Of a stretch of DNA of 64,000 nt, positions 1-19,145 are shown one piece after another. Origin of the DNA: an uncultured Eubacteriales bacterium (GTDB taxonomy: Bacteria > Acidobacteriota > Aminicenantia > Aminicenantales > Aminicenantaceae); NCBI GenBank assembly GCA_964435925.1, contig CAYTBG010000002.1, positions 1,833 through 65,832 on the forward strand. The letters run 5' to 3'. Below the pieces are notes generated by a model. The model made no database searches. It was not told the DNA's origin and saw nothing but the letters and a program-made list of their open reading frames with translations. The translations under genes and the position numbers were made by a program. Within the stretch, counting starts at the first letter, position 1, and the number at the start of each line of letters is the position of its first letter.

Positions 1-832
1 CGAGCATACGATCTTGCTCTATGATAAACAGGACCCACGGCAGAGCCAGTTCTCATATATGAAGGGTGAAGTCACAGACAGGGCTAAACTGAGCGAGGCT
101 TTTCGAGATGCAGATGTAGTGATACATCTGGCAGCTCTGCGGTCCCGTTACAACCATCTGCCGATGAAGGTGATGGAAACAAACATCTTAGGAACTTTCA
201 GTGTGCTCGAGGCAGCACGGAGCCAAGGAGTGGAAAAGTTGTTATTCTCCAGCAGCGACGCGGTTCTTGGAATAGCACAGAGTGTGAATGAGTTGGCTCC
301 CGAGTACGTACCGATAGACGAGAAACATCCCTTAAAGCCACAGGATCCTTACGGAATCAGCAAGATGCTAGGAGAGGAGATGTGCTGCTGCTATGCGGAA
401 GGATATGATATTGACATCATTGCCCTGCGGTTTTCGAACATTTTCTGTCCTGGGGACGAGCAAAAATATTTGACCGACGCAAAAGATCCATCAGCGAGGC
501 GTAAGTCCCTGTGGGCCTGGGTTCACGTGGAAGATGCAGTTTACGCTATTGTGTGCGCTCTTATGTCCGACCTGAAAGGGTATGATGTATTCCATATAGT
601 GGCTGAAGACGTATGTCTTTCGAATCCGAATATCCAGAATCTGATGGCTACTTACTTTCCTAAAACTCCAATTAGAAGACCTCTTTCCGATAAAGAAAGT
701 CTTATTGATTGCAGGAAGGCCAAGCATAAACTGGGCTTCCAACTGCGCAGTCGATTCGCCGAAGTGCTGACCATGGAAGATTCAGAGCCTCCTAGCAAGA
801 ATCATCGGGCGATTAAGGCCATGAAATCATAA
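1..832 (+). CDS. NAD-dependent epimerase/dehydratase (extended SDR), 5'-truncated by window edge; copy 1
   Basis: Frame continues from nt 2 with no stop (EHTILLYDKQ...). YxxxK catalytic motif present (PYGISK). Rossmann N-terminus lies outside the window; the paralog at 17144 shows VTGGSGKLAG upstream of the same region. Confidence 0.7.
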   Translation, partial: EHTILLYDKQDPRQSQFSYMKGEVTDRAKLSEAFRDADVVIHLAALRSRYNHLPMKVMETNILGTFSVLEAARSQGVEKLLFSSSDAVLGIAQSVNELAPEYVPIDEKHPLKPQDPYGISKMLGEEMCCCYAEGYDIDIIALRFSNIFCPGDEQKYLTDAKDPSARRKSLWAWVHVEDAVYAIVCALMSDLKGYDVFHIVAEDVCLSNPNIQNLMATYFPKTPIRRPLSDKESLIDCRKAKHKLGFQLRSRFAEVLTMEDSEPPSKNHRAIKAMKS

Positions 833-848
833 AGGTAACTAGATAATT

Positions 849-1820
849 ATGAAGATTGCGATAGTCTACCATCCGGCGCGAATGCGTGCGACCGAAGATA
901 AAATCCAAGGGTCACGCCGCAAACTCCTGTACCCCACTCTTACCCGCGTGCGCAAGGCATTCGAGCGTGCTCATAACAAGGTTGTGACTGTTGATGGACG
1001 AGGCAACCTGTTTGCGAAGATCAGGAGAGCCAAGCCAGATATAGTATTCAACTGGTACTCAATACCTGGCAGAGTCCAGTCATACGTACCTGCGATCTTG
1101 GAAAAGATGGGAATGCCTTACACTGGTTGCAGTGCTTTGTGCCATGCTCTGGCAATGCATAAGGGGCTGGCGGGTAAAGTCCTTCGATATGACAAGTTGC
1201 CGGTGCCGCAATTCGCCTTGGTCAATCGAAAACAACGGGAGCCATCTCGGCAGGTAGAATTTCCAATCCTGGTAAAGCCCTGCTCTTTAGGGGCGAGCGA
1301 AGGAGTATCAGAAGGGTCTTTTGTCGAGTCGGCCGAAGAACTGCCTGCAGCAATAGATGCTGTTCTTGCAGTAGACAAGGAAGCAGTCATAACAAAGTAC
1401 ATTCCTGGCCGCGAGATAACCGTCGGCGTCATCGGCAACAAAAAATTACAAATCCTGCCAATCCTAGAGAAACATTTCGAGACTAAGCGAGGAGCGCCTC
1501 GAATCTTTACAGAAAAGATGAAGAAGAAATCTACCCACTGGCAATATAACGTAACGGTACCTGAAATGAAAGCGGATGAGGAGACAGCTGTGAAGAAGGC
1601 AGCGACAAGGGCCTTTCGTTCGATTGGCTGTACTGACTATGCACGAGTGGACATCCGCCTGGATAAACAAGGGATTCCCTGGATTCTCGAGGTAAATACA
1701 CTCCCGGGGATTTATCCGAAATTCAGCCCAATGGCCAAGATGGCCAGTGAAATAGGCAAGCCAGCTGAGTATCTGGCCACGCGGATCCTAGAAGAAGCCG
1801 AAGAGAGGCACGGTCTATAA
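849..1820 (+). CDS. D-Ala-D-Ala ligase-family ATP-grasp enzyme; copy 1
   Basis: ATG 8 nt after the epimerase stop. Ddl-like motifs MPYTGCSALCHALAMHKG, FPILVKPCSLGASEGVS, GREITVGVIGN and ARVDIRLD...ILEVNTLPGI. N-terminal domain is atypical for Ddl (no GGxSxE). Confidence 0.7.
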   Translation: MKIAIVYHPARMRATEDKIQGSRRKLLYPTLTRVRKAFERAHNKVVTVDGRGNLFAKIRRAKPDIVFNWYSIPGRVQSYVPAILEKMGMPYTGCSALCHALAMHKGLAGKVLRYDKLPVPQFALVNRKQREPSRQVEFPILVKPCSLGASEGVSEGSFVESAEELPAAIDAVLAVDKEAVITKYIPGREITVGVIGNKKLQILPILEKHFETKRGAPRIFTEKMKKKSTHWQYNVTVPEMKADEETAVKKAATRAFRSIGCTDYARVDIRLDKQGIPWILEVNTLPGIYPKFSPMAKMASEIGKPAEYLATRILEEAEERHGL

Positions 1821-2064
1821 GAAGTGATCCCTGAGAGGGATTCGCTAGCCTTAGCAGGCAGTGCTCCCTGCGCGATTTTGGCCGCGAGAGCCTGGCCGCC
1901 TTGATGGCCAAAAGGCAGTAAATATATCACTTCGTCCCTTGCTGAGGAATGAGTACATGAGGTGGGAGCCCATTTTGAAAAACTCCATCACGAGACTCTC
2001 ATCAATGTGTCAAGTAAAGACAATCTTTGAATAGTCAAGCAAATTAAATCCTAGAACAAATAAT

Positions 2065-3216
2065 TTAATAGGATAGTTTTAAAATTTCTAAGACATCTTC
2101 CTTTTTCAGTTTCTTGAAGTTGCCAATCTCGCCAAAATAAACTGCCTTTGTTGCCATTTCTTCAAATTTTTCATAATTAATGTTTACTTGAGAAAATGTC
2201 TTTGGCATCTCTAAAGAGCTGAAAAAATCCCCTGTTTTTTGTATGCTTAAGTTAGCAATACCTGTTTTTTCTCCTGTATTAGGGATGTCCCACACGTTAT
2301 GAGCAAATTCTACAAATTTATTAACATTCTCGTTCATTACATATTTCATCCAGTTGGGAAACAGTATTGCCATGCCAACACCATGTGTTAGGTCATATAT
2401 TGCACTGACTTCATGTTCAATTTTGTGTGTTGCAAAGTCTCCCTTTTTGCCGAATGATAAAAGGCCGTTTAAGGCAAGACTTCCAGCCCACATTATGTTT
2501 GCTCTTGCTTCATAATCATTTGGGTTCGCTAAAACAATCGGTCCATACTTTATGCATGTTTTTAAGATGCCTTCAGCTAAACGATCCTGCAGATATGCTC
2601 CTTTTGTAGCATCGAAGTATTGCTCAAAAACATGGCTCATTATATCAACAATCCCTGCTGCTGTATGTGGTCGGGGCACAGTCATCGTATATGTTGGATC
2701 AAGTATTGAAAATTTTGGTCTTAGAAGATTTGATGTTATTGAGAGTTTTTGTTGTGTTTCTTCGTTATTGATTACTGCGCTTGCGTTTATTTCAGAAGCT
2801 GCTGCAGCCAAAGTCAAGATAGTTCCGATTGGAAGGGCCTTTTCTACTGTTGCTTTTCTCATGAATAAGTCCCAGACATCATCTGGATAATAGATCCCCG
2901 CCGCGATTGCTTTAGAGCAGTCTATAACACTCCCTCCTCCAGCAGCCAAGATAAAATCAACATTGTTTTCTGCGCATATCGTTATCCCTTTTTTTACACT
3001 TGAGAGTCTTGGATTTGGCTTTATTCCAGACAATTCGAAATATGTCTTATTTTTTAACGCATCAATAACTTTTTCATAGATACCATTTTTTTTGATACTC
3101 CCGCCGCCCCAAGCAAATAATATCCTGTTATAGTTTTTAATTTTGCTTTCTAAATTATTTATCTGGTCTTTGCCAAAAAGAATTTCTGTCGGAATTAGAT
3201 AGTCAAAATTTAACAT
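2065..3216 (-). CDS. iron-containing (group III) alcohol dehydrogenase
   Basis: 383 aa. GGGSVIDCSKAIAAG and downstream His-rich metal-binding region typical of Fe-ADH. Confidence 0.8.
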   Translation of the reverse strand: MLNFDYLIPTEILFGKDQINNLESKIKNYNRILFAWGGGSIKKNGIYEKVIDALKNKTYFELSGIKPNPRLSSVKKGITICAENNVDFILAAGGGSVIDCSKAIAAGIYYPDDVWDLFMRKATVEKALPIGTILTLAAAASEINASAVINNEETQQKLSITSNLLRPKFSILDPTYTMTVPRPHTAAGIVDIMSHVFEQYFDATKGAYLQDRLAEGILKTCIKYGPIVLANPNDYEARANIMWAGSLALNGLLSFGKKGDFATHKIEHEVSAIYDLTHGVGMAILFPNWMKYVMNENVNKFVEFAHNVWDIPNTGEKTGIANLSIQKTGDFFSSLEMPKTFSQVNINYEKFEEMATKAVYFGEIGNFKKLKKEDVLEILKLSY

Positions 3217-3573
3217 TTTAAAACCTCAAATTAAGTTTATTTTTATTGTTGATATTTTGTTATGACCAAAAAAATTAATATAAAAAATTAAATTATTTAA
3301 TACTATTCAAATTTTATCATAGACACCGGAGTATTTCCTCCATTATGCTTTGTATATGGAATTCAAGATTTCCTTTATAACCAAAGGAAAGGCATTTAGA
3401 GCATAAATTCAATGCTGAAAATTTATAGAGAAGCCCTTTCGGTCTATAGTTCTTAGGCGAACTCCAAATAAAAGGCGGTTTGACTCCTGATTTATTTGAT
3501 GATAGATAGTAAAAGAGTCATGCAATTAAGCAATCATGATATTTTATGAAGCTTATTATCGGAGATTAGAGAT

Positions 3574-4788
3574 ATGAAGAGTTTGGATGATTATCTTCCT
3601 ATTGTTGGAGAAAAGGTCATAGGGAATATTTATCAAAAAGCTCATCGCCTGATCAATAAACATATTGTGCATATAAATTCAACTGCCCAGGGAGGGGGTG
3701 TTGCCGAAATACTAAACAATCTTGTGCTTTTAATGAATGATGTTGGAATAGACACAGGCTGGAGAGTCTTGCTAGGGCCAGCGGATTTCTTTTCTGTGAC
3801 AAAGAAATTTCACAATGCCCTTCAGGGCGATAAAATTAATTTATCTAGTAACAAAAAAAATCTCTATTTGGATACAAATGAGCGGTTTTCCAAATTTACT
3901 CATCTGGATCATAATTGTGTTATAGTACACGACCCTCAACCTCTCCCTCTGATTAAATTTCACAGAAAAAAGCAGCCGTGGATTTGGCGATGTCATATTG
4001 ATCTCACTGACCCCAACAAGGAATTATGGAGTTATATTAAGCCCTTTATTCTCCGTTATGATATGATGATAATTTCAACTAAGCATTTCAAGAAGAATGA
4101 TCTTTTCGTTGAGCAACGAGTTATTCATCCTTCGATTGATCCTCTTTCTCCCAAAAACATGGATATATCAGATGATACTATTTCAAAGATTTTTAAGAAG
4201 TTTGATATTCCAACGGATAAACCCCTCATGACTCAGGTTTCTCGTTTTGATCCCTGGAAGGATCCAGAGGGAGTGCTAAGAGTGTTTGAGATTGTAAAAG
4301 AGAAAGTGGATTGCCGTCTTGTCTATTGTTATAACATGGCTGCTGATGATCCCGAGGGATTTGTGATATATAGCGTAATAGAGAAGAAAGCCAGGAAGTA
4401 TTTGAAAAAAGGTGATATTTTGTTCGTACGAGGAGATAATCAGATTTTAGTAAATGCTCTGCAGAGAAGATCTTCGGTCATCCTTCAAAAATCCACAAGG
4501 GAAGGTTTTGGCTTGTCACTTACTGAGGCTCAATGGAAGGGAATCCCTGTTGTGGCCTCGAAAATCGGCGGAATTCCTGAACAGGTTGTTAATAATAAAA
4601 CAGGATTCCTTGTGGACCCCGATGATTTTGCTGGATGTGCTGATAAAGTGATTACTCTCCTCGAGGATAAAAAACTTGCCAAAGAAATGGGAAGAGAAGG
4701 AAAAGAATTCATCAGAAATAATTTCCTTGTGACAAGGCATATAAGTGATTATTTGACACTTTTTATAGATGTCTTTGATAATTATTAA
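3574..4788 (+). CDS. treT: trehalose glycosyltransferring synthase (TreT-type, GT4)
   Basis: Motifs recalled from archaeal TreT: HINSTAQGGGVAEIL, FHNALQG, VHDPQP, WRCHIDL, SIDPLS, TQVSRFDPWKD, DDPEG, REGFGLSLTEAQWKGIPV, GFLV. RBS gagattagagatATG. Confidence 0.65.
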   Translation: MKSLDDYLPIVGEKVIGNIYQKAHRLINKHIVHINSTAQGGGVAEILNNLVLLMNDVGIDTGWRVLLGPADFFSVTKKFHNALQGDKINLSSNKKNLYLDTNERFSKFTHLDHNCVIVHDPQPLPLIKFHRKKQPWIWRCHIDLTDPNKELWSYIKPFILRYDMMIISTKHFKKNDLFVEQRVIHPSIDPLSPKNMDISDDTISKIFKKFDIPTDKPLMTQVSRFDPWKDPEGVLRVFEIVKEKVDCRLVYCYNMAADDPEGFVIYSVIEKKARKYLKKGDILFVRGDNQILVNALQRRSSVILQKSTREGFGLSLTEAQWKGIPVVASKIGGIPEQVVNNKTGFLVDPDDFAGCADKVITLLEDKKLAKEMGREGKEFIRNNFLVTRHISDYLTLFIDVFDNY

Positions 4789-5065
4789 TATCACTGATCC
4801 CTTTTCTTCCCTAATTGATTCCTTTTCAAGGGAAATATTCCAGGGCAAACTTTTCTTTGATTTATTTATTTTCAGACTATGTCTTACAAATTAGCAATAT
4901 TAAGCACTAACGAGGCAAATAGAAAAAAGAGAGACAGTCTTTCGGAAGCATCTCCAAAACCTTTTCTAATAACGGAGATGGAAATGCTTACCCCTTTTCG
5001 AGCTAATTTGATATTGTCTTTATTAAAGAGTAAAATAATAAATAAATAACCCCTCAAAATTCATC

Positions 5066-7282
5066 ATGAAGGGAAATAAAAAGTCGAAAGGTAAAATCAT
5101 TATTATTTCTAATAGACTGCCTGTAACGATAAGCAAAAGGAAAGATAAGCTGAAAATTCAACAGAGTCCGGGAGGATTGGCGACTTGTCTCCGTGCTATC
5201 CAAGAGGAGGAAAAGGCTATTTTTGTCGGTTGGCCTGGCTATTGGCCTGCAAACGTTGAAGAAAAAAGATTAATTGAGAACGACCTCGTAAATAACTACA
5301 AGAGCTATCCTATCTTTATTTCTCCAGCAGAAATCGGCAAATATTATTATGGTTTTGCAAACAGAACTCTCTGGCCTCTTTTTCATTATTTTTCGACTTA
5401 TTGTGCTTATGAAGAGTCAGAGTGGATTGCTTACAAAAGAGTGAATGAAAAATTTTTTCAGAAGGTATTCGATTTAGCCGATCCGCAGGATACCTTCTGG
5501 ATTCATGATTATCATCTTATGCTTCTTCCTGCTCTTATCAGAAAAAGTTTACCTCAAAGTGCAATTGGCTTTTTTCTGCATATCCCTTTTCCTTCTTCTG
5601 AGATATTTCGGACACTGCCGTGGCGAGAAGAGATTCTCGAAGGTTTCCTTGGAGCTGACCTCATAGGTTTTCATACCTATGAGTATGCTCAGCACTTTTT
5701 AAACAGCGTGTTGCTATTATTAGGATATGAACACGAGTTTGGAGAGATCCTTGTGGGCAACAGGATTGTAAGGGTAGAGAATTTTCCCATGGGGATCGAT
5801 TCCCTGGGTTTGAAGAATCTTCTGGAAGAGCCTTCAATACAGAAAGAAATCAAAAAGCTTGAGGAAAAAATATGGACAAAGAAGAGAAAGATCATTCTTT
5901 CTGTTGATCGCTTGGATTATACCAAAGGAATCCCGCAACGATTAAAAGGCATTGAGTTGTTTTTAGAGAAAAATCCCGAGTGGCACAACCGGTTTACTTA
6001 TATCATGTTATGTGTTCCCTCGAGGACTAAAGTTAAGCATTACTCTCTTCTCAAGGAAGAAGTTGATTCCCTGGTCGGAAGAATTAACGGCCGGTTTGGC
6101 GTGCCAGGTTGGATTCCTGTTCATTATATGTATCGTTCTCTTCCTTTTCATAAACTTTTCCCCCTCTATACTATAGCCGATGTTGCTCTCGTTACTCCCT
6201 TACGCGATGGGATGAATTTGGTTGCTAAAGAATACGTCACTTCTAAAAAAGATAATAAGGGTGTTCTTGTGCTCAGCGAGACAGCCGGGGCTGCTTCTGA
6301 ACTGGGAGAAGCCTTACTTGTTAATGTGAATAATAAAGAAGACATTGCCTCAGCATTGACTCAGGCTCTTGATATGAGTGAAGAAGAACAGGCAAGAGGG
6401 ATGGAATTAATGAGAAAGCGGCTCTTTGAATATGATGTGTTGCACTGGGCCAGAAGTTTTATCGAGAGAATTAAAGATGTTAAAAAAATTCAGTCTCAAC
6501 GTGAACATAGAAAGCTTAATGCAGAATGGGAGAAAAAACTCATATCTGATTTCAAAAGAAGTAAGAATCGACTCCTATTCCTGGATTATGATGGCACATT
6601 AGTTTCTTTTGCTACGAAACCTGAGCAGGCAAAACCAGATATAGGATTGATTAGGCTTCTTTTTTCAATGGGCAAGGATCCTCACAATACCTTGGTTATC
6701 GTTAGCGGAAGGGACCGGACAACAATAGAGCGCTGGCTGGGAAAGGTCCCTTGTGGTCTGGTTGCTGAACATGGTGCCTGGGTTAAAAGAGACGCTCGTC
6801 ATGGCTGGGAAAAGCAAAAGAGTCTATCCGGGGATTGGAAAGAACAATTAAAACCTATTCTCAAGACTTATGAATTTCGCGTTCCAGGTTCTCTGGTGGA
6901 AGAAAAAGAGTATGGAATTGCCTGGCATTATCGAAAGGCTAATCCAGAATTAGGTCAACTCAGGTCTGGTGAATTATTTGATTACTTAAATGAGTTTCTG
7001 GCCAATACAGATCTTCAGGTGATGCACGGCAATAAAGTTATTGAGGTGAGGATTTCTGGAATAAACAAAGGCAATGGTGTAATACCTTGGCTTTCTGAGA
7101 AAAGGTGGGATTTTATTCTTGCTTTGGGAGATGACTGGACTGATGAAGATCTATTTAAAATGTTACCAGCAACGGCTTATTCAATAAAAGTAAGCTACGG
7201 ACCGTCTCAAGCCAAGTTTTATCTGGAATCCCCCCAAACAGCCAGGAGTATGCTCCGTAAGTTGGTTAAAATTCAGAAATAA
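5066..7282 (+). CDS. otsA: bifunctional trehalose-6-phosphate synthase/phosphatase (OtsA-OtsB fusion; GT20 + HAD)
   Basis: 738 aa. N-terminal IIISNRLPV...GGLATCL GT20 signature. C-terminal LLFLDYDGTLV and GDDWTDEDLF HAD phosphatase motifs. Confidence 0.85.
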   Translation: MKGNKKSKGKIIIISNRLPVTISKRKDKLKIQQSPGGLATCLRAIQEEEKAIFVGWPGYWPANVEEKRLIENDLVNNYKSYPIFISPAEIGKYYYGFANRTLWPLFHYFSTYCAYEESEWIAYKRVNEKFFQKVFDLADPQDTFWIHDYHLMLLPALIRKSLPQSAIGFFLHIPFPSSEIFRTLPWREEILEGFLGADLIGFHTYEYAQHFLNSVLLLLGYEHEFGEILVGNRIVRVENFPMGIDSLGLKNLLEEPSIQKEIKKLEEKIWTKKRKIILSVDRLDYTKGIPQRLKGIELFLEKNPEWHNRFTYIMLCVPSRTKVKHYSLLKEEVDSLVGRINGRFGVPGWIPVHYMYRSLPFHKLFPLYTIADVALVTPLRDGMNLVAKEYVTSKKDNKGVLVLSETAGAASELGEALLVNVNNKEDIASALTQALDMSEEEQARGMELMRKRLFEYDVLHWARSFIERIKDVKKIQSQREHRKLNAEWEKKLISDFKRSKNRLLFLDYDGTLVSFATKPEQAKPDIGLIRLLFSMGKDPHNTLVIVSGRDRTTIERWLGKVPCGLVAEHGAWVKRDARHGWEKQKSLSGDWKEQLKPILKTYEFRVPGSLVEEKEYGIAWHYRKANPELGQLRSGELFDYLNEFLANTDLQVMHGNKVIEVRISGINKGNGVIPWLSEKRWDFILALGDDWTDEDLFKMLPATAYSIKVSYGPSQAKFYLESPQTARSMLRKLVKIQK

Positions 7283-7311: not shown

Positions 7312-7530
7312 TATCCTTTCAACCCTTATATCATATATATAATAATTTCAGCACAACTCAGCTGAATTTGACCCAAGAAATCGCGTTTTATTCTAAAATT
7401 TGCTTTTTCATTCAGAATATGTAAGAATACAAGAAAATGCGACTTAAATTTCTTTGATTCAGCACAAAAACCCCAATTTCTTTTAAGCTTTTTTTGTGAT
7501 GTTTTATTTTTTTTTCTAAGGAGATTTATT
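7312..7530 (+). promoter_or_regulatory. conserved ~215-bp non-coding leader element, copy A (promoter/5'-UTR candidate)
   Basis: Collinear, roughly 80% identical to 16611..16820. Starts just after a stop codon and ends at an AAGGAG RBS. Contains a conserved TTCAG...CTGAA hairpin and a TTGACC box. Confidence 0.4.
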
Positions 7531-7593: not shown

Positions 7594-7620
7594 GAACTTC
7601 ATATAAAAAAAAGAACAAAA

Positions 7621-8082
7621 ATGTTTACTTTTAAGAAAATTCTTTGGCCAACGGATTTTAGTGAGCCATCCTTTGAGGCGCTTAAAACAGCGAAAGAATT
7701 AGCCTCGCATTTCTCTTCCGAGCTATATCTTGTTCATGTTATCAGGCCAATGCCCCCTATTGTAGAAATTCCACGAGATCGGCCAAGCTTCAATGTTTCG
7801 TTGTATAGGAAAGAGCTCCGATCTTCCGCAGAAAAGTCACTCCAGGAAGTGATTAATAAAAAGGTTGGAAAAAGATTAAAAGTGCATGCTTTTGTTGCCA
7901 ACGGAGATGCAGCTGTTGAAATCAATCGCATTGCCAAAAGGGAACATATTGAACTTATTGTTATTGCAACTCAAGGTACCACTGGCAGGCGGAGTTTCTT
8001 TTTCGGGTCGGTTGCAGAGAAGGTGGTACGGATTGCCTCCACTCCTGTACTTACTATTAGATCTCCTCATAAAGAGGAATAA
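7621..8082 (+). CDS. universal stress protein (UspA family); copy 1
   Basis: 153 aa. ILWPTDFSE...LYLVHV...IVIATQGTTGRR...GSVAEKVVR, a typical USP ATP-binding pattern. Confidence 0.8.
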   Translation: MFTFKKILWPTDFSEPSFEALKTAKELASHFSSELYLVHVIRPMPPIVEIPRDRPSFNVSLYRKELRSSAEKSLQEVINKKVGKRLKVHAFVANGDAAVEINRIAKREHIELIVIATQGTTGRRSFFFGSVAEKVVRIASTPVLTIRSPHKEE

Positions 8083-8248
8083 TTAGTTTAGAGATTGGTT
8101 AATTAATTATGGAGGATCAGCATATTTTAGGTAACACATTTTATATGGGAATCGGTTGCACAATAGGCTGCGATTTTTCGCTTTAGATCTCTAAAAGGCG
8201 AAGAAGACTTTTCCCCTATTAATTGAAATATAAGGAGGCTTTAAAAGG

Positions 8249-8683
8249 ATGAAACGGAAATTTACACCAGCGCAGGTGACAGAGGGTAAGGTAGATTATA
8301 GCCTTGAAGAGTTTTTAAGGGATTTATGGGAAGATGTGAAATCTAATATATCCAAAGAGGTCCTTAATCGTCTGCCAGAAGGGAAAAAGAGAGACAGAAA
8401 ATATAATGAAGCGATAAGAGAAGTCTTTAATTTTGTATGTGATATCTGTTACTTGGCTGTGGTTGAGAAATCCTACTTGAAATTAGTGCTTAAACAATCT
8501 AACGAAGTGGAAAGAAAGCTTATAAAAAAGACAATTAAGGAGAATAAGAGCAATATTGATATGCTGTATGCTATCTTGAGGATGCATATAGCAAGAGGAC
8601 TCAAGGAGGGATTGACGAAGAAACAAGCTGTAAAAGCAACAGTTGAATATAGTAAGGAGTTAATTTCTAAATGGAGAAAGTAG
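8249..8683 (+). CDS. hypothetical protein (144 aa), conserved partner of UspA; copy 1
   Basis: Good RBS (aaggaggctttaaaaggATG). Paralog at 23133..23567 is nearly identical in its C-terminal half. Confidence 0.6.
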   Translation: MKRKFTPAQVTEGKVDYSLEEFLRDLWEDVKSNISKEVLNRLPEGKKRDRKYNEAIREVFNFVCDICYLAVVEKSYLKLVLKQSNEVERKLIKKTIKENKSNIDMLYAILRMHIARGLKEGLTKKQAVKATVEYSKELISKWRK

Positions 8684-8740
8684 GAATATAGGTTTAAAAA
8701 ACAAAGGATAAAACCTAAGCAAATTATAAAAGAAAATAAA

Positions 8741-8851
8741 ATGAAAAATATATTACGAAAGATGGGGATAGTGATAATGGCTTTAGTTATTGGGGCAACA
8801 ATTGTGATGATAGTGGGAACGGTAGTGATAATATGGGTAGTGACGGGATAA
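8741..8851 (+). CDS. possible small hydrophobic peptide (36 aa, single TM)
   Basis: MKNILRKMGIVIMALVIGATIVMIVGTVVIIWVVTG. No convincing SD, so weak. Confidence 0.2.
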   Translation: MKNILRKMGIVIMALVIGATIVMIVGTVVIIWVVTG

Positions 8852-8870
8852 AGAGGAGGAGCTCAAGAAT

Positions 8871-9653: not shown

Positions 9654-10215
9654 TTTGAATAAAGGCTTGTTTACTATCTAGACAGAGGAGCCCTAAATGT
9701 AGGGAACGAAGATAGTGGTTCTGGAATAATTTGGTTTCATAAGTACTCAGAACCAAACCCTCAGCCAGACGAGGTATTTGACCAAGAATCATACATGGGA
9801 GCTCTTGGATATAGGATTCCCTCCATCGCCGCAAATAGTGTCCGTCACATTGAATTTATTCGAAAGGCGGTCAGAGGGAACGAAGAGCACAATGAATGCG
9901 AACTAGTGAAAAACGGAAAGATTCTTATTGGTTTTGAGTTTCCAGAACATTGATGATGGCCGTACAATTGAGAAGCTAGTTGACATTTCTTTTATTTGGG
10001 TTAATAGATTCCGGATATGTTTATGACTTCGGTTTTAATACTAAAGCGAAATGGGATTAAAGATATGCTTGAAATGGAAAGAGGCGAGTGGAAGCAAAAG
10101 ATCCTAAAGCCTTGGCTTCCCCTGATTGAAAAAGACAGCAGAGCGCGATTAGCGTCTCATTGGGAGAGACGCTTTAGATTTATAAATTTCTCATTAAAAA
10201 AATAAGGAGGCTAAA

Positions 10216-10770
10216 ATGAAAAAATCGTTGCTTCAATTTACTACGATTATTCCTCTGACTATTCTTCTCTGTTTTGCCTTTAGCTGTCAAAAGCAGGCTG
10301 AAAAGGCAGAACTTGAAGAGATGAAAGCCCAGGCAGAGGTTAAGGAGCAAAATAAGGCTATTGTAAATCGTATGTATGAAGCGTGGGGCAAAGGAGATTT
10401 TGAGGCTTATAAGGAGGTGGTAGCTCCTGAGTATGTTTGGTACTTGCCATCAAGAAGTACCAAACCCATGTCCCGAGAAGAAACAATAGAATTTGAAAAG
10501 ATGCTTCATAATGCTTTTCCTGATATTACTTACAGGATTGAAGAATTAATTGCTGTAGAGGACAGAGTTATATCCAGGTTTATAGCGAGAGGCACTCACG
10601 AAGGAGAATTTCAAGGAATTCCTGCGACTGGGAATAAAATTGAAGTTAGTGGGATTATGATGACCCGCATTGAAAATGGAAAAATTGTAGAGGATAAGGA
10701 AGAACTTGACCAGTTGGGTATGATGATGCAACTCGGCATGGAGCTTAAGCCGAAGGAGGCCGAAATATAA
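10216..10770 (+). CDS. lipoprotein with SnoaL-like/ester-cyclase (NTF2-like) domain
   Basis: Lipobox (CFAFSC). NKAIVNRMYEAWGKGDF...GTHEGEF.GIPATGNKIEV.GI...ENGKIVE pattern of SnoaL-like cyclases. Confidence 0.55.
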   Translation: MKKSLLQFTTIIPLTILLCFAFSCQKQAEKAELEEMKAQAEVKEQNKAIVNRMYEAWGKGDFEAYKEVVAPEYVWYLPSRSTKPMSREETIEFEKMLHNAFPDITYRIEELIAVEDRVISRFIARGTHEGEFQGIPATGNKIEVSGIMMTRIENGKIVEDKEELDQLGMMMQLGMELKPKEAEI

Positions 10771-11009
10771 GTCGTTTAATCTGCCTTTTCATAGTGATTG
10801 AGTCGATAGCTTAGCGTTTTTCCCGGCTGTCGCCTGATTAAAAATGAGGCGGCGAATAAAAAAACGATGTCTCACCAGTTCTTGGTTCCCGTAACCATGT
10901 GGATCCTACCTTGCTGAGGTTTGGCACCGTTCCTCAGCTGTCGCCTGAAAAAAAGGATGTGAGACGATGAGTATTTCAAAAACTCGAGGGCTTCTTTAAG
11001 GAGGCAAGA

Positions 11010-11660
11010 ATGAAAAAAAAAGGATATAAAATTATCTTGGTCACCATAGGGGCTATTATAGGGGCCTTCATCCTGCTCATTGTCCTCATAAACATATTTG
11101 TCCCCGAAGAGGAGTTGCAAAAATCCGCCCAAGCCAGAGCCGAAAGAAAAAAAGCGACAATTGAAGAGGGGGCCAAGCAAGAGGCATTGAAAGCCGAAAT
11201 AGAAAGAAAAAAAATAGCACCTGAAGAAATGGCCAGACAAGAAGCACTAAAAGCTGAAGAAATGGCCAAGAAAGAGACAGCGAAAGTCGAAGACTCGATT
11301 AAAAAAATCTTCGAGGCTAAAAAAGCTGGCGATAGCGGAGTAGTTTCCATTCGGTATGCCAAGCCCAATTGCACAGTCCATTATGACCTTTTTCCCCTTG
11401 GACTGTTCAAATATGAGGATGAGCTGGGCATGAAGCTAATGCCAAAAATAAAAAAACTCTACCAAAAGCACGCGGAAATAGAAAATGTTATTATTTTAAT
11501 TAGAGGACCTTTTCAAGATAGGTATGGAAATATGACCTGGGAACCTGTAGTCTCCTTTGAATTCCCAAGGGACGTCCTCAATCAGATCAATTGGAGTCGT
11601 TTTTTTAATAAGGATTTATTGAAAGTCGCTGAAAATGTAGCGTGGCATAGAAGGTCATAA
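11010..11660 (+). CDS. membrane-anchored protein with charged KQEALKAE repeats
   Basis: N-terminal TM helix, tandem (K/R)QEALKAE(I/E)... repeats, and a C-terminal globular region. Confidence 0.45.
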   Translation: MKKKGYKIILVTIGAIIGAFILLIVLINIFVPEEELQKSAQARAERKKATIEEGAKQEALKAEIERKKIAPEEMARQEALKAEEMAKKETAKVEDSIKKIFEAKKAGDSGVVSIRYAKPNCTVHYDLFPLGLFKYEDELGMKLMPKIKKLYQKHAEIENVIILIRGPFQDRYGNMTWEPVVSFEFPRDVLNQINWSRFFNKDLLKVAENVAWHRRS

Positions 11661-11670
11661 AGGACTAAAA

Positions 11671-11958
11671 ATGAACGAGAGAGAAATTATGGGAAAGAAC
11701 CTGCGGACGCACGGGCAAGCCAAAGGGCTGAGGCAAAAGGACTTGGCGACAAGGGTCGGGCTGTCAGTGGATGCTGTCTCAAAAATTGAACTGGGAAAGC
11801 AGGAGAACATCAGCATAAAATACCTGGTCTCGATCTGCCAGGAATTGGACATCGGCATTGAGGAGTTATTTTTGGAGAATCCCAGGAGTCTAAAAATCGA
11901 GCTGGTCATTTCCAATAAAACGTTGAGCCTTGAAGAGAATTTGCCGAGGCCTTCTTGA
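11671..11958 (+). CDS. XRE-family helix-turn-helix transcriptional regulator
   Basis: LRQKDLATRVGLSVDAVSKIELGKQ HTH_3 signature. Confidence 0.7.
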   Translation: MNEREIMGKNLRTHGQAKGLRQKDLATRVGLSVDAVSKIELGKQENISIKYLVSICQELDIGIEELFLENPRSLKIELVISNKTLSLEENLPRPS

Positions 11959-12076
11959 GTTTATAAATTAAGGCCCTAGCGATCCATATATTTGTCTTTG
12001 TCATTGACCAGTTCGGGGGAAACCGGATCTGCTGGGGCCTTCCCTTATTAAATAAAAAATAATGCTGAGGATTTAG

Positions 12077-12262
12077 ATGAAAGTTTATTGTTCGGAATGT
12101 TTTAGGCCGATAGATACGAAAAGAAACAATGTCGGTCGCGATAACAGGCTTGTCATATGTCCGGACTGCACCCAAAATCTCTGTGCCACAGTACCGAAGG
12201 ATAAAATCCTGCAGAAGTTGCCGAACGGGAATTTCAAGCGAAGGAAAAGGAATAGAAGATGA
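12077..12262 (+). CDS. small zinc-ribbon protein (two CxxC pairs)
   Basis: CSECF...CPDC spacing. Confidence 0.35.
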   Translation: MKVYCSECFRPIDTKRNNVGRDNRLVICPDCTQNLCATVPKDKILQKLPNGNFKRRKRNRR

Positions 12263-12797
12263 GAATAGCCAGAATTTTTCCGACAAGAACGAGCACGAGT
12301 CCCACAGACCAAGATATTTACTTTGGCGGGTCCGAGCTTTTCATGCCTGAATATGATGGGGTCTATATCTCCGTATTAAAATGGATGAATTCAGGCGGCA
12401 AAAAAAGGGTGTCCCATCATACCTCTCGTTTTGGTTCATCTATTCTAGCCGGTTCTGGCACTCTCCGGCTTTGCCGCCTTCTTAAATTTTCATAGAAAGG
12501 ATGTGGATAATTGCCTAAAAAGACATGGCAAAAGATATGGCCGGATACCGTCAAGCTCAATCCGACAGATCACTTTTTCAAACCCACAAAACAGGAATTG
12601 AAAAGTAAAGACGGCTTGATTTTTCTGGAATTTATAGAAAGCGCATAAGCGGATAAAATTTAGCTTAGAGACAATCGGAATCCTGTGGAGCTTTATAAAA
12701 TTTTTGAGAGCAAACGGCTATTATATCGTCAACAAAAATACTGTTTTCCGGGTGCCATTTTCACATCTAGTCGATCAAAGCGAACTGAAATGATGCG

Positions 12798-13061
12798 ATG
12801 AACAAAAAAGACACAGAGAAAAAGCTGGAATACTTAGAAGTATTTAGAAAAAAAATCATCCTGTGGGAAGCTGATAACGAAATTCACCAGGATCAATCGT
12901 GTGTTTTGAAAGGCTGGATTAACACTCTTATTAAATGTCTGGAATTATTCTCTGTGCTATTTGAATTTTATCCTAAGAAGCTCATGGAGAAGAAAGGGAA
13001 GGAAATCGACAACAACTTGTCTGATTTAGAAAAAGTCATAGAGGATTCAAAAGGGAGCTGA
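12798..13061 (+). CDS. hypothetical protein
   Basis: ORF with a plausible context ahead of 13066. No recognizable domain. Confidence 0.3.
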   Translation: MNKKDTEKKLEYLEVFRKKIILWEADNEIHQDQSCVLKGWINTLIKCLELFSVLFEFYPKKLMEKKGKEIDNNLSDLEKVIEDSKGS

Positions 13062-13065
13062 GAAA

Positions 13066-13305
13066 ATGAGCGTTTACGAGTTAAGAAAAAACGATCTGGA
13101 GAAGATAATATTCGACATCTCCGAATTCAAAGGCAAGGACTATATTAACATCCGGTTGTGGGTCCGGGACGGGCCTTTGATAAAGGAGTGGAGGCCGACA
13201 GCAAAGGGACTTTTTATTTCATTGGAGCTGGCCTCAGAATTCATGGAAGGCATGGGTCTTATATTCAAGCCCATCGAAAAAAGAAAAGAGAAGGAGCATA
13301 AGTAA
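13066..13305 (+). CDS. PC4-like ssDNA-binding transcriptional coactivator family protein
   Basis: FKGKDYINIRLWV.DG...PT.KGL.ISLE pattern of bacterial PC4/YdbC-like proteins. RBS aaagggagctgagaaaATG. Confidence 0.45.
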   Translation: MSVYELRKNDLEKIIFDISEFKGKDYINIRLWVRDGPLIKEWRPTAKGLFISLELASEFMEGMGLIFKPIEKRKEKEHK

Positions 13306-13309
13306 AGAA

Positions 13310-13564
13310 ATGAAGGCAAGGCCCAGTAAGAAAACAATTGAGGACCTCGAGATTCCCGGACTCCCTGGTCGTGGGGGACTCGTCCTCGGACTGCTCAGAA
13401 ATCTTATGCCCGGACTGAAGATCACTCAGAAAAAGCGGTATTCCTGGATTCAGGCTTTCAAGAGAATGGGGCCGGCGGAGATCAGCAGGATTATCTATCT
13501 CAGCTCGGACGAGAAGCGCTGCAGGAGAGCTATCGAGAAGGCCGTTAAAGTAATGGAAAAATAA
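13310..13564 (+). CDS. hypothetical protein
   Basis: ORF only. Confidence 0.25.
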   Translation: MKARPSKKTIEDLEIPGLPGRGGLVLGLLRNLMPGLKITQKKRYSWIQAFKRMGPAEISRIIYLSSDEKRCRRAIEKAVKVMEK

Positions 13565-13704
13565 AGGAAGTGGATCAGGAGAAAATGTTGACATTTGTTG
13601 ACATCGAGAAAGAAAATTCTGCTGTGTCACCTAATAGGGTATTTATGTCGCGCCTCAAAACAGAACCCAGTTGGGATAACGCCCAAAAATAAATAAAGAT
13701 TCCT

Positions 13705-15282
13705 ATGACCTTCCTCGATTGGATCATTATTATCCTGTATGCAGGCGGCCTCATCGTCCTGGGATGGTGGCTGGGACTCAAGCAGAAAACATCAGAAGAT
13801 TATTACCTGGCGGGAAGAAAGTTACCCTGGCTTCCCATAGGATTTTCCACTATGGCCACCCAACTGGGGGCCATTTCTTTTATCTCTGCTCCGGCTTTCG
13901 TTGCTCTTAGGGAAGGCGGCGGCATGATATGGCTGGGATATGAGCTTGCTCTTCCCCTTGCCATGATTGTCCTTATGGCTTTTCTTTTCCCTGTATTTCA
14001 TTCGCTTCGAATCATAAGCGTCTACGAGTTTTTAGAAAGGCGCTATGATGAGAAAACAAGGGTTGTGATGAGCCTTGTCTTCCAAGTAAGCCGGGGTTTA
14101 GCCACAGGAGTTACCATCTACGCTGCTGCTATTGTTCTCTCAGTGACCCTCCAAATTCCTCTCTCGATAACTATTCTCCTTATCGGCGCGGTGGCCGTTG
14201 TCTATGAGTTTTTCGGAGGAATCCATGTGGATATTGTCTCAGACACAATCCAAATGATTGTTATCTTCCTGGGAATAATCATAACCGGGTTGGTCGGCCT
14301 TCATCTTATCGGAGGATGGAGTTCGATTTCAGAGCTAATAGACCCTGCACGACTTGTCGCAGTGGATTTTTCTGCTCATGGACTTGGCGATAGCCAAGAT
14401 TTCGGGTTCTGGCCATTATTTCTTGGAGGCTTTTTTCTTTATGCTTCTTACTATGGCTGCGATCAAAGTCAGGTCCAGAGGGAACTCTCTGCCAGAAACC
14501 TTAAAGAATGTAAATTGAGCCTTCTTTTCAACGGTTTTTTCCGCTTCCCCATAGTCCTCGCCTACTGTGCTTTGGGACTCATCTTAGGAGCATATGTTGT
14601 CCAACATCCTGAATTCCTTGGGAATCTTCCTCAGGGAAGACCTGATTACCTCCTCCCCGCTTTTATCCTGGCAAAAATGCCTCCAGGAGTTGTAGGGTTG
14701 ATTTTTATTGCTATCATGGCTGCAGCTATGTCTTCCCTCGACTCTTCCATAAACTCTCTCTCTGCTGCCACTGTGGAAGACATCTATAAAAAGATCAGGA
14801 AAAGAAAGATAGAGCCAGGGCAAGAGATGAGATTATCCAAGATGTTTACGCTTTTTTGGGGAGTTGTCTGCATCGGATTTGCCTTTTTTGTTGGTGATAT
14901 TTCTCCTACTATCATAGAATCAATAAACAAAATCGGGTCTGCCTTTTACGGCCCTGTTTTTGCCGTCTTTTTGGCGGGAATTATCTCCTCAAAAGCCAAA
15001 CCTCTTCCCGCCATTGCTGGTCTTGTGAGCGGAGTAACTGGAAACCTCTTCCTCTGGCTTTTTGTGCCTTCAATCTCCTGGTTATGGTGGAATGCGATTG
15101 GATTTGCGCTCACGACTGCAGTCATTTTTTTGGGGAGCTTACTTTTCCAGTCAGCTTTCAAGAGCTCCTTCGAAATAAAAATCAGCCCTGAGGAAAGAGC
15201 CTGGAAAATAAGCTATGGATTATTGATCGTTTATGTTGCGGGGCTAATTCTCTTTTTAATTTTTTTCCCCAAGCTGTTTTAA
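13705..15282 (+). CDS. sodium:solute symporter family (SSF) transporter
   Basis: 525 aa. Multi-TM with the SSF pattern (GR.LPW...GFSTMAT.L.A.SF.S.PA). Candidate solute or proline-type importer. Confidence 0.75.
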   Translation: MTFLDWIIIILYAGGLIVLGWWLGLKQKTSEDYYLAGRKLPWLPIGFSTMATQLGAISFISAPAFVALREGGGMIWLGYELALPLAMIVLMAFLFPVFHSLRIISVYEFLERRYDEKTRVVMSLVFQVSRGLATGVTIYAAAIVLSVTLQIPLSITILLIGAVAVVYEFFGGIHVDIVSDTIQMIVIFLGIIITGLVGLHLIGGWSSISELIDPARLVAVDFSAHGLGDSQDFGFWPLFLGGFFLYASYYGCDQSQVQRELSARNLKECKLSLLFNGFFRFPIVLAYCALGLILGAYVVQHPEFLGNLPQGRPDYLLPAFILAKMPPGVVGLIFIAIMAAAMSSLDSSINSLSAATVEDIYKKIRKRKIEPGQEMRLSKMFTLFWGVVCIGFAFFVGDISPTIIESINKIGSAFYGPVFAVFLAGIISSKAKPLPAIAGLVSGVTGNLFLWLFVPSISWLWWNAIGFALTTAVIFLGSLLFQSAFKSSFEIKISPEERAWKISYGLLIVYVAGLILFLIFFPKLF

Positions 15283-16585: not shown

Positions 16586-16610
16586 GGAAAGCGACAGAAA
16601 AAAAGTGGAG

Positions 16611-16820
16611 ATTATCCTTTCAATCCTTATATCATAATTTCAGTACAATTCAGCTGAATTTGACCCAGAAATCGCATTTTATTTTAAAATTTGCTTTTCC
16701 ACTCATAATATGTAATAAATATAAGTAATGAGAATTAAATTCTTCTAATTCAGCACAAAAACCCCTGTTTCTGTTGAGCTTTTTTCGTGGTGTTGTATTT
16801 TTTTGTTAAGGAGCCCAATT
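16611..16820 (+). promoter_or_regulatory. conserved ~215-bp non-coding leader element, copy B
   Basis: Collinear with 7312..7530. Ends at an AAGGAG RBS before ATG 16821. Confidence 0.4.
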
Positions 16821-17096
16821 ATGGATAAAAAAATAATTTATCAGGAAAAGATTAAAGCTCAATTAGAAAAAGTGAGCCCCAAAATTTATAAATTAAAGGC
16901 CAAAGCCGAGAAGGTAAATGTAGTGGATGGAATTGATTATTACAAGCAGATTGAAAAATTAAAAGCAACGCGGGATTTGTTAAAATTGGAACTCCAGGAA
17001 CTTAAAGAGATTGAAGAGGAGCCAGATGGGGATCTCGAAAAAAGAATACAGAATTCCATGAATGATTTAGAAGAATCTTTAGATCTTGATATCTAA
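16821..17096 (+). CDS. hypothetical coiled-coil protein
   Basis: ATG at 16821 with RBS aaggagcccaattATG. The ORF-track start at 16803 lies inside the conserved leader. Heptad-like KL/EL repeats. Confidence 0.5.
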   Translation: MDKKIIYQEKIKAQLEKVSPKIYKLKAKAEKVNVVDGIDYYKQIEKLKATRDLLKLELQELKEIEEEPDGDLEKRIQNSMNDLEESLDLDI

Positions 17097-17143
17097 AGGT
17101 TCGATAAATAGAATATTAACCTCTCTTTTGGCTGTAAGCATAA

Positions 17144-18049
17144 GTGAAAAAGATAAAACTGGTTGTAACGGGCGGAAGCGGAAAATTGGCCGGATACCTC
17201 ACACCCGTGCTTGCACGCGAGCACGAGATCTTGCTCTATGATAAACAGCGACCATAGCAGAGCCAGTTCCCATATATGAAGGGTGATATCACAGATAGTG
17301 CTAAACTGAGCAAGGCTTTTCAAGGTGCAGACGGGGTGGTACATCTGGCAGCTCTGCGGTCCCGTTGCAACCATCTGCCGATGAAGGTGATGGCAACAAA
17401 CATTTTAGGAACTTTCAGTGTGCTCGAGGCAGCACGGAGCGAAGGAGTGAAAAAGTTGTTATTCTCCAGCAGCGACGCGGTTCTTGGAATAGCACAGAGT
17501 ATGACTGAGTTTGCTCCCGAATATATACCGATAGACGAGAAACATCCCTTAATGCCACAGAATCCTTACGGAATCAGCAAGATGCACGGAGAGGAGATTT
17601 GCCGCTGCTTTACGGAAAGATATGATATAGATATCATTGCCCTGCGGTTTTCGAACATTTTCTGTCCAGGTGATGAGAAAAAGTATTTGACTGATGCAAA
17701 AGATCCATCAGCAAGGCGTAAGTCCCTATGGGCCTGGGTGCACGTAGATGATGCAGTTTGCGCCATTGTATGTGCTCTTGCGTCCGACCTGAAAGGGTAT
17801 GATGTATTCCATATCGCGGCTGAAGATGTTTGTCTTTCGAATCCGGATATCCCGAATCTGTTGGCTACTTTTTTTCCTAAAACGGAAATCAGAAGACCTC
17901 TTTCTGATAAAGAAAGTCTTATTGATTGTAGCAAGGCAAAACATAAACTGGGCTTCCAGCTGCGCAGAAGATTCGCCGATGTGGAAGGCATGGAAGGTTC
18001 AGAACCTGCTAATAAAAATCATCGGGCGATTAAAGCCATGAAATCATAA
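17144..18049 (+). pseudogene. NAD-dependent epimerase/dehydratase copy 2, disrupted by an in-frame TAG at 17255..17257
   Basis: GTG 17144 to VTGGSGKLAGYL Rossmann motif, then ...LLYDKQRP-TAG. Copy 1 has CGG at that position. The remaining ORF (17276..18049) lacks the NAD-binding N-terminus. Confidence 0.55.
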
Positions 18050-19145
18050 AGGTAACAAGCAAATTATGAAGATTGCGATAGTATACCAGCCGACGAGAAT
18101 GCGTGCAACCGAAGATAAAATCCATGGATCATGCCGCAAACTCCTATACCCCACTCTTACCCGTGTGCGCAAGGCATTCGAACGTGCTCCTCACAAGGTT
18201 GTGACTATTGATGGACTCGGCAACCTATTTGCGAAGATCAGGAGAGCCAAGCCAGATATAGTGTTCAACTGGTACTCAATGCCTGGCAGAGTCCAGTTAT
18301 ACGTACCAGCGCTCCTGGAAAAAATAGGAATGCCTTACACTGGTTGCAGTGCTCTGTGCCATGCTGTGGCAATGCATAAGGGGCTGGCGGGTAAAGTCCT
18401 TCGATATGACAAATTGCCGGTGCCGCAGTTCGCCTTGGTCAATCGAAAACAACGGGAGCCATCTCGTCAGGTAGAATTTCCAATCCTAGTGAAGCCCTGT
18501 TCTTTAGGGGCGAGCGAAGGAGTATCAGAAGAGTCTTTCGTCGAGTCAGCCGAAGATCTGCCAGCAGCAATAGATGCTGTTCTTGCAGTAGACAAGGAAG
18601 CAGTCATAACAAAGTACATTCCTGGACGCGAGATAACCGTCGGCATCATAGGAAACAAAAAATTGCAAATCCTGCCAATCCTAGAGAAGCGTTTCGAGGC
18701 TAAGCGAGGAGCACCTCGAATCTTTACAGAAAAGATGAAGAAGAAATCTACCCACTGGCACTATAACGTAACAGTGCCTGAAATGAAATCGAATGAGGAG
18801 ACAGCTGTGAAGAAGGCAGCGACAAGGGCCTATCGTTCGATTGGGTGTACTGACTATGCGCGAGTGGACATCCGCCTGGATAAACAAGGGATTCCCTGGA
18901 TTCTCGAGGTAAATACACTCCCAGGGATTTATCCGAAATTTAGCCCAATGGCCAAAATGGCCAGTGAAATAGGCAAGCCAGCCGAGTATCTGGCTATGCG
19001 GATCCTAGAAGAAGCAATGGAGAGAAATGGTTTATAAGAAGTGGTCTCTGCGAGGGATGTGCTAGCTTAGCAGGCGGTGCTTCCCGTGTGATTTTGCACG
19101 TGGGAGCCCAGTCCCCTTGATGATCAAAATGTAGTAAATATATCA
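17208..19145 (+). repeat. segmental duplication unit A2
   Basis: See unit A1. Confidence 0.8.
18066..19037 (+). CDS. D-Ala-D-Ala ligase-family ATP-grasp enzyme; copy 2
   Basis: Same length and motifs as 849..1820. Protein differs at only scattered positions. Confidence 0.7.
   Translation: MKIAIVYQPTRMRATEDKIHGSCRKLLYPTLTRVRKAFERAPHKVVTIDGLGNLFAKIRRAKPDIVFNWYSMPGRVQLYVPALLEKIGMPYTGCSALCHAVAMHKGLAGKVLRYDKLPVPQFALVNRKQREPSRQVEFPILVKPCSLGASEGVSEESFVESAEDLPAAIDAVLAVDKEAVITKYIPGREITVGIIGNKKLQILPILEKRFEAKRGAPRIFTEKMKKKSTHWHYNVTVPEMKSNEETAVKKAATRAYRSIGCTDYARVDIRLDKQGIPWILEVNTLPGIYPKFSPMAKMASEIGKPAEYLAMRILEEAMERNGL

Follow-up and report, generated by a model that had tools for sequence, protein, structure and literature searches.

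The window analysed here is the whole stretch of 64,000 nucleotides taken from contig CAYTBG010000002.1 (positions 1,833 to 65,832 of the forward strand). It belongs to a Candidatus Aminicenantes bacterium carrying two diverged paralogs of a small gene cassette, which consists, in order, of an upstream leader, a stress gene of the sll1863 family, an extended short-chain dehydrogenase/reductase (SDR) of the 'epimerase/dehydratase-like' type, an ATP-grasp ligase resembling Ddl, and a short 3' tail. Copy 1 is truncated by the window edge, and copy 2, which is complete in the window, contains an SDR gene interrupted by an in-frame TAG. The sequences used for comparison include two contigs of the Joint Genome Institute (JGI) that supply the remainder of copy 1 (L002 and L003), the nearest intact relative of copy 2 (L123), and sister lineages in which the cassette is present (L084, L087 and L004). 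The features of the two copies, and the gene that follows copy 1, are as follows.

1..832, forward strand: copy 1 SDR 'epimerase' (PF01370), 3' 275 codons; the full gene (298 aa, L002 9088..9984) is intact and starts with ATG
849..1820, forward strand: copy 1 Ddl-like ATP-grasp ligase, 323 aa
1821..1940, forward strand: copy 1 3' tail, the last ~95 nt of which (1846..1940) are common to copy 2 only
2065..3216, reverse strand: Fe-dependent alcohol dehydrogenase (Fe-ADH), convergent; sister lineages also have it next to the cassette, an ancestral arrangement
16628..16813, forward strand: copy 2 leader block, with homologs upstream of copy 1 (L002 ~8570..8755) and of the first universal stress protein (USP) copy (7336..7523)
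16821..17096, forward strand: copy 2 sll1863-family stress protein, 91 aa from ATG (mechanical open reading frame start TTG 16803)
17136..17139, forward strand: weakened Shine-Dalgarno (SD) sequence of the copy 2 SDR, AAGC versus AAGG in copy 1 and L123
17144..18049, forward strand: probable copy 2 SDR pseudogene read from GTG 17144, 302 codons including stops
17153..17155, forward strand: lost start codon of the copy 2 SDR, ATA versus ATG in copy 1, L123, L084, L087 and L004
17255..17257, forward strand: in-frame TAG of the copy 2 SDR; CAG in L123 and most relatives, CGG in copy 1
17276..18049, forward strand: residual open reading frame of 257 aa from an internal conserved Met, the piece annotated by gene callers (P0034)
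18066..19037, forward strand: copy 2 Ddl-like ATP-grasp ligase, 323 aa, intact and under purifying selection
19038..19156, forward strand: copy 2 3' tail, with 19156 as the last base of the duplication

Comparison of the window with itself by BLAST aligns 1..1940 with 17218..19156 at 90.3% nucleotide identity (185 mismatches, 3 gaps). The collinear duplication claimed in the sequence-only reading is therefore genuine, while the interval given there for copy 2 (17208..19145) was about ten bases off. This is one of three repeat pairs in the window, the others being 7606..8705 with 22488..23590 and 7336..7523 with 16628..16813. When copy 1 is completed from L002 and L003, which are 100% identical to window 1..2921 and encode a 95-aa open reading frame (ORF), a 298-aa SDR with an ATG start and the ATP-grasp ligase, the repeat covers ~2.5 kb, from L002 8616 / window 16676 through 19156, with an upstream limit at ~16628/16676. 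The two SDR proteins are 83.6% identical over the part inside the window (230/275) and 83.5% identical over the full 297 aa, and the ATP-grasp proteins are 92.3% identical (298/323). Matches to Pfam (Epimerase, Dala_Dala_lig_C, Fe-ADH, Asn_synthase+GATase and Osmo_MPGsynth) agree with the gene types previously named from the sequence, as do the neighbours, a convergent Fe-ADH after copy 1 and an asnB-like gene and mpgS after copy 2. Among the loci found, the pairing of SDR and ATP-grasp genes is confined to Candidatus Aminicenantes.

Translation of the copy 2 SDR from GTG 17144 gives VKKIKLVVTGGSGKLAGYLTPVLAREHEILLYDKQRP up to the stop at 17255..17257, followed by QSQFPYMKG... in the same frame. 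The TAG is codon 38 counted from that GTG and splits VTGGSGKLAGYL from YGISK, with the Rossmann motif TGGSGKLA upstream and the YxxxK motif downstream; the homologous codon of copy 1 is CGG (38..40), as had been noted from the sequence. In copy 1 an uninterrupted ORF joins TGxxGxxG to S...YxxxK, whereas in copy 2 none does. Two further lesions, ATG to ATA (17153..17155) and AAGG to AAGC (17136..17139), bring the total at the 5' end of this gene to three independent single-base lesions within 125 nt, and GTG 17144 alone remains as a start, with a 4-nt spacer to the degraded SD, leaving no usable combination of start codon and ribosome-binding site. L123 (91.7% nucleotide identity to copy 2) has CAG, ATG and AAGG at the three sites, reading CGA CCA CAG CAG where copy 2 reads CGA CCA TAG CAG, and copy 1 matches L123 at the ATG and the SD. 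The ~35 close SDR homologs (74-90% identity, 287-300 aa) are all uninterrupted and have Q or R at the TAG position. A database protein search returned no intact copy 2 allele, the best match to copy 2 being 88%. In extended SDRs the N-terminal TGxxGxxG is required for NAD binding. Because of the three 5'-end lesions, any product of the copy 2 SDR would lack this segment, and the copy 2 epimerase is very probably inactivated, as the sequence-only reading had proposed on the strength of the nonsense codon and as the lost ATG, the weakened SD and the intact state of all three sites in L123 now also suggest.

Six of the orthologous SDRs (P0006, P0013, P0015, P0016, P0022 and P0030) are annotated with 287 aa and a start at 'M/LARYL...', an internal TTG past the glycine motif. 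A complete MKLVITGGSGKL N-terminus is encoded ahead of the annotated start in L123 and L084, and the short annotations look like a start-site artefact of the gene callers.

The lesions recur in assemblies of other samples. Contigs that share the TAG are L001/L121 from JGI sample 3300028837 (3 single-nucleotide polymorphisms and two ~150-nt indels relative to the window over 14 kb) and L122 from JGI sample 3300008517 (4 single-nucleotide polymorphisms), and the window, L001 and L122, which come from three different samples, share the TAG, the ATA and the AAGC; one more contig, known from an ORF-level record, contains an identical 257-aa ORF. A disabling lesion missing from the orthologs is thus reproduced in the assemblies of other samples. 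An isolated assembly or sequencing error, which had been raised as a possible cause, is excluded, and sequencing error was rejected on the ground that all three lesions recur. A broader artefact, in which the TAG or the two-copy arrangement results from strain merging, collapse or chimera formation, is extremely unlikely. The data are metagenome assemblies, the contigs of other samples break at repeats, namely at a 231-nt identical tract described below, and those of sample 3300028837 show several artefact-like deletions of 120-200 nt. However, the copies differ at 185 positions and so are not collapsed, sample 3300008517 yields a contig of copy 1 (L002) as well as one of copy 2, both ATP-grasp proteins are on record for the same 72,983-nt NCBI contig, and the two USP/orf144 copies are linked by the 231-nt tract, which resembles gene conversion. 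Contigs of other samples cover the outer junctions and the path from copy 1 through Fe-ADH, TreT and OtsAB to USP, as well as each of the junctions 1940/2065, 3326, 16628, 19156 and 29262. In sister lineages the two ends of the ~29-kb interval lie next to each other in synteny, arguing for a single genome.

The deletions in sample 3300028837 were located by comparison with the window. Its contigs L131 and L001, which are otherwise 99.95-100% identical to the window, lack five segments of 120-200 nt (~710..887, 3087..3285, 4766..4888, 23556..23705 and 25789..25944), one of these deletions fusing the copy 1 SDR and ATP-grasp genes into a 568-aa gene call. They are probably assembly artefacts of that sample, and possibly strain deletions.

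A TAG read as a sense codon, through pyrrolysine, a suppressor tRNA or programmed readthrough, would yield a full-length SDR. That the TAG lies in frame and that no decay is seen downstream of it would fit such decoding, and nothing else speaks for it. TAG terminates 7 of the 56 non-overlapping ORFs of the window (12.5%), including ORF 8249..8683, already pointed out from the sequence, as well as ftsA and murG, which are as long as their L087 orthologs; apart from the codon at 17255, no TAG in the window breaks a recognisable gene. TAG is thus neither avoided as a terminator nor conserved in frame in the orthologs, which have CAG or CGG at this codon, and scans of the window returned no tRNA and no Rfam family. 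The start codon and SD are, moreover, damaged as well. We rejected recoding on the basis of stop usage, the ortholog codons and the lack of any other interrupted gene, and regard it as highly improbable. On the reverse strand (30705..33146), the stop codon of ftsA is TAG and ftsZ continues in that frame (405 open codons), a coincidence that could be misread as a TAG-interrupted fusion.

The age of the inactivation was approached through selection on the two copies, using pairwise NG86 estimates of synonymous divergence (dS) and of the ratio of nonsynonymous to synonymous divergence (dN/dS). The comparison of dN/dS between the copies, proposed in the earlier reading as a check, gave 0.33 for the SDR (dS 0.26) and 0.17 for the ATP-grasp ligase (dS 0.215), both at the family baseline. 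For the copy 2 SDR against L123, L084, L087, L004 and L005, dN/dS is 0.21-0.37, and among intact SDR genes it is 0.18-0.39. The 906 nt of the copy 2 SDR align without gaps to five orthologs, with no indels, and carry 5 unique changes at columns conserved at ≥97%, within the family range of 0-5. Relaxed selection on this gene was therefore not detected by pairwise dN/dS, indels or the count of unique substitutions, and the inactivation would accordingly be very recent. The other two genes of copy 2 are intact: the sll1863-family gene has dN/dS 0.17 relative to copy 1, and the ATP-grasp ligase, whose integrity had been asserted from its reading frame, has dN/dS 0.15-0.17, against a family baseline of 0.12-0.20, and 6 unique changes, compared with 4-9 in close orthologs. 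To judge from these values, the copy 2 stress protein and ATP-grasp ligase remain constrained.

The same absence of decay also fits a reading in which the interrupted SDR is still useful, either through re-initiation at ATG 17276 to give a 257-aa protein, or as a split enzyme made of a 37-aa Rossmann peptide and the 257-aa piece. ATG 17276 is a conserved Met that lies 18 nt, or six codons, past the TAG, and copy 2 has kept the catalytic motifs YGISK and SSS. On the other hand, the upstream ORF has lost its ATG and SD, so that little translation would reach the TAG, there is no SD before 17276, and no such split occurs in the ~35 relatives. The 257-aa piece is also missing the β1-α1-β2 unit, with its TGxxGxxG and the acidic residue of β2, through which extended SDRs bind NAD. 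We consider residual function of this kind quite unlikely, and loss of function by point mutation remains the preferred reading.

The duplication itself had been described as recent, and this part of the sequence-only reading did not hold. The dS values of 0.215-0.26 between the copies are close to those of the flanking housekeeping genes (0.20-0.30 for Fe-ADH, the amidohydrolase, ftsZ and ftsA, this genome versus L084 and L087), and lie within the range of 0.16-0.35 to the cassettes of L084, L087 and L123; divergence between the copies is thus not well below that between orthologs. Eight database proteins are closer to copy 2 than copy 1 is. A sliding window detected no tract of elevated identity between the copies (maximum 95.5%), and the nearest neighbour of copy 2 was found to shift along the unit. 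Identical runs in the cassette reach at most 62 nt, a length that chance would produce at 10% divergence. Recent gene conversion between the cassette copies was rejected on these negative sliding-window and longest-run tests. The recent event is the inactivation, and the duplication is old.

Where copy 2 came from is a separate matter. Copy 1 occupies the ancestral position, the gene order in the sister lineages L084, L087 and L004 being NAD kinase, cassette, convergent Fe-ADH, amidohydrolase, ftsZ, ftsA and the dcw cluster. Relative to these lineages the window has two additions, a 214-nt insert (1847..2060) between the copy 1 ATP-grasp gene and the Fe-ADH stop, where the sisters have ~30 nt, and a ~26-kb block (3327..~29262) between Fe-ADH and the amidohydrolase. 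Copy 2 lies inside this block, which is missing at this position in the three sister lineages, has a guanine-plus-cytosine (GC) content of 38.9% compared with 43-44% in the flanks, and is rich in osmoadaptation genes (TreT, OtsAB, MpgS and two USPs). Copy 2 might be a xenolog. In that case it would be an allelic cassette that a sibling Aminicenantes lineage contributed, along with some of the block, through recombination or transfer. At the nucleotide level the copy 2 SDR is closer to L123, L084 and L087 (90-92%; L123 91.7% over its whole 1.7-kb contig, L084 90.9%) than to copy 1 (88.7%), and the sll1863-like gene is closer to L087 (94.2% in orf97) than to copy 1 (91.1%). The eight closer database proteins, the mosaic of nearest neighbours along the unit, and the absence of the block from the sisters at this position, with its differing GC content, point the same way. 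By contrast, the copy 2 ATP-grasp ligase has copy 1 as its best match (92.9%), the closest relatives of copy 2 (P0011 and P0016) are in a copy-1-type context with no donor-type locus found. A scan of a genome collection yielded just two genomes of close Aminicenantes, and each of these has one cassette at the copy 1 locus. In protein rankings and neighbour-joining trees the copies are not mutual nearest relatives, but these phylogenies are star-like, with bootstraps <65, and were set aside as unable to decide between duplication and transfer; the 3' tail points in the opposite direction. The ~95 nt common to copies 1 and 2, which form the start of the 214-nt insert, are missing from all three sister cassettes for which DNA is available (L084, L087 and L004), and constitute the best argument for in-lineage duplication over import. 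The GC content of the cassette (46-48%), which differs from that of the 39% block around it, also speaks for an origin within the lineage. In-lineage duplication is therefore favoured, and transfer from a sibling lineage is a possible but distinctly less probable origin.

Taken together, the locus is likely to represent an old paralogous stress cassette in which the copy 2 SDR has recently become a pseudogene by point mutation. The cassette would have been duplicated within the lineage at about the time of its separation from the sampled sister lineages. Later, and very recently, the copy 2 SDR would have been inactivated through SD AAGG to AAGC, ATG to ATA and, at codon 35 counted from the former ATG, CAG to TAG. 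Because the copy 1 SDR is intact it may supply the activity in trans, which would make the loss tolerable. The copy 2 stress protein and ATP-grasp ligase persist intact and under constraint. Several points weigh against this account. A missing signal of relaxed selection is equally expected if the SDR is still expressed in some form, and phylogeny does not tell an in-lineage duplicate from a copy 2 acquired out of a sibling lineage. The TAG is seen in assembled contigs rather than in reads, which does not fix its allele frequency or its fixation in the population. The proposed loss of function draws on general knowledge of extended SDRs. Lastly, both collinear copies are placed in one genome by a stretch, 8705..14857, that links the two islands and is covered by the window's own contig only, with no bridging contig from another sample.

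The block surrounding copy 2 contains genes for TreT, an OtsA-OtsB fusion, a first USP/orf144 copy, a BamD-like protein, an SSS transporter and rpsU, followed by cassette copy 2, the asnB-like gene, mpgS, a second USP/orf144 copy, rpoD and a sulfatase. Because the core genes rpsU and rpoD lie inside it, the block resembles the outcome of a rearrangement more than it does a mobile island. Exact-sequence look-ups found neither P0024 nor the TreT protein on record, and a look-up with S21 returned only contigs under 2 kb. The block features referred to in the text are listed here.

3574..4788: TreT
5066..7282: OtsAB fusion
7606..8705, forward strand: USP and 144-aa ORF, copy 1
19177..20883, forward strand: AsnB-like class-II glutamine amidotransferase, N-terminal Met-Cys
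20898..22097, forward strand: mannosyl-3-phosphoglycerate synthase (MpgS; TIGR02460, 491 bits versus a cut-off of 351)
22488..23590, forward strand: USP and 144-aa ORF, copy 2

Several other repeats are associated with this region. The two USP/orf144 blocks are 89.2% identical and share a tract of 231 nt with perfect identity (8445..8675 = 23325..23555), compared with a maximum of 107 nt in 1000 simulations, and this tract, at which the other assemblies break, looks like the product of a recent gene conversion, to judge from its length. The leader block of ~190 nt is present three times, before both sll1863-like genes and before USP copy 1 (7336..7523 versus 16628..16813, 85.3%), and at USP copy 1 it keeps the sll1863-like SD and ATG, followed by a short remnant ORF. 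A direct repeat of 135-160 nt, containing a 28-codon ORF called by JGI, occurs at 29258..29420, at L002 ~8440..8595, and at L084 9333..9467 and 13209..13343 (92% identical within L084). In the sisters it brackets the cassette and Fe-ADH, and here it brackets the cassette, Fe-ADH and the 26-kb interval.

Downstream of copy 2, the asnB-like gene and mpgS form a module of their own. The closest relative of the asnB-like protein is 90% identical and the next 72%, and the contig of the former (L124) aligns with the window from exactly 19157 and is unrelated upstream. The two genes are adjacent, in either order, in 19 of 32 further metagenome loci and in 20 of 33 retrieved loci overall (the window, L089-L118 and L124 among them), often followed by an SSS transporter and sometimes preceded by rpoD; mpgP was not observed beside the pair in the retrieved loci, and the cassette is present in none of the 32. 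The occurrence of an independent module in loci without the cassette, together with the junction at 19156/19157, implies that the cassette was juxtaposed to it. The earlier statement that the copy 2 ATP-grasp gene now heads the asnB-like and mpgS genes thus holds as to position but demonstrates no pathway, and the description of the locus as the inside of a biosynthetic cluster was overstated, the pair being a separate conserved module found in >15 loci without the cassette. Functional coupling was rejected, since no other locus pairs the cassette with the module. The asnB-like protein may plausibly amidate mannosylglycerate; the product would be mannosylglyceramide, which Rhodothermus marinus is known to contain as a solute (PMC1224877). 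In the literature searched, no paper was found that ties an amidotransferase to mannosylglyceramide or that links asnB-like and mpgS genes. A rewiring of copy 2, in which the ATP-grasp ligase, maintained by selection immediately upstream of the asnB-like and mpgS pair, was recruited without its SDR into a pathway for a mannosylglycerate-derived osmolyte, such as an amide-linked derivative related to mannosylglyceramide, is very doubtful; if true, it would make the SDR inactivation an adaptive or neutral consequence of the new role of the ligase.

An AsnB-like amidotransferase and a peptide-forming ligase are also combined in the N-acetylglutaminylglutamine amide (NAGGN) osmolyte pathway (asnO-ngg), which served here as a lead only. 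The likeness lies in an AsnB-family amidotransferase adjoining a gene of the ATP-dependent ligase type, in a context of osmoadaptation. It differs in that the asnB-like protein scores 179.9 bits against the cut-off of 570.1 for TIGR03104, passing the generic asparagine-synthase model TIGR01536 (330 versus 267 bits), and in that its partner in the >15 other loci is mpgS and not the ATP-grasp gene.

The cassette genes were also compared with known families. The SDR (PF01370, 2.6e-29) has the glycine motif TGGSGKLA, SSS, the YxxxK motif YGISK and the length of ~300 aa that are shared by extended SDRs such as GalE, LegB and uronate dehydrogenase, but falls far below every NCBIfam equivalog cut-off (best LegB, 86 versus 475 bits), and its copy 2 is TAG-interrupted and has lost its ATG and SD. 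The E-value of 2.6e-29 is that of the copy 1 fragment, and the 257-aa ORF of copy 2 shows the same Pfam matches. The ATP-grasp ligase (PF07478, 6.7e-34) is in a cluster whose members JGI calls Ddl, and its matches in the PDB are all Ddl/Van ligases except the weakest, an L-amino acid ligase. It does not reach the thresholds for PRK01372 (NF002378, 156.9 versus 243 bits) or TIGR01205 (139.5 versus 245.65 bits), and no Ddl of solved structure aligns with its first ~57-82 residues. In genuine Ddl this N-terminal region contributes to the first D-Ala site. Also unlike Ddl, the cassette gene invariably has the SDR and sll1863-like genes as partners, and does not lie between murC and ftsQ. The first cassette gene (91-97 aa) passes the NCBIfam model NF052504 (52.8 versus 35 bits), named for Sll1863 of Synechocystis sp. 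PCC 6803, which is among the most salt-induced proteins of that cyanobacterium (PMC8670252). It differs from Sll1863 in its phylum and in heading an operon-like trio with the SDR and ATP-grasp genes.

The inactivation itself is routine, a redundant paralog losing one gene by point mutation. As in ordinary paralog pseudogenes, one duplicate carries disabling point mutations and the other copy is intact; the present case differs in that one of three genes is lesioned and in that the duplication is old, yet the inactivation is so recent that the gene shows no signal of relaxed selection. What the locus offers is a clean separate dating of an old duplication and a very recent inactivation, and for annotators a caution that the 257-aa 'epimerase' in public records would be a pseudogene fragment. 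The more interesting lead lies beside the cassette, in the asnB-like and mpgS pair that is conserved across many contigs. For the Aminicenantes, the locus flags a trio of sll1863-like, SDR and Ddl-like genes, restricted to this group and uncharacterized, in a genomic region of osmoadaptation genes.

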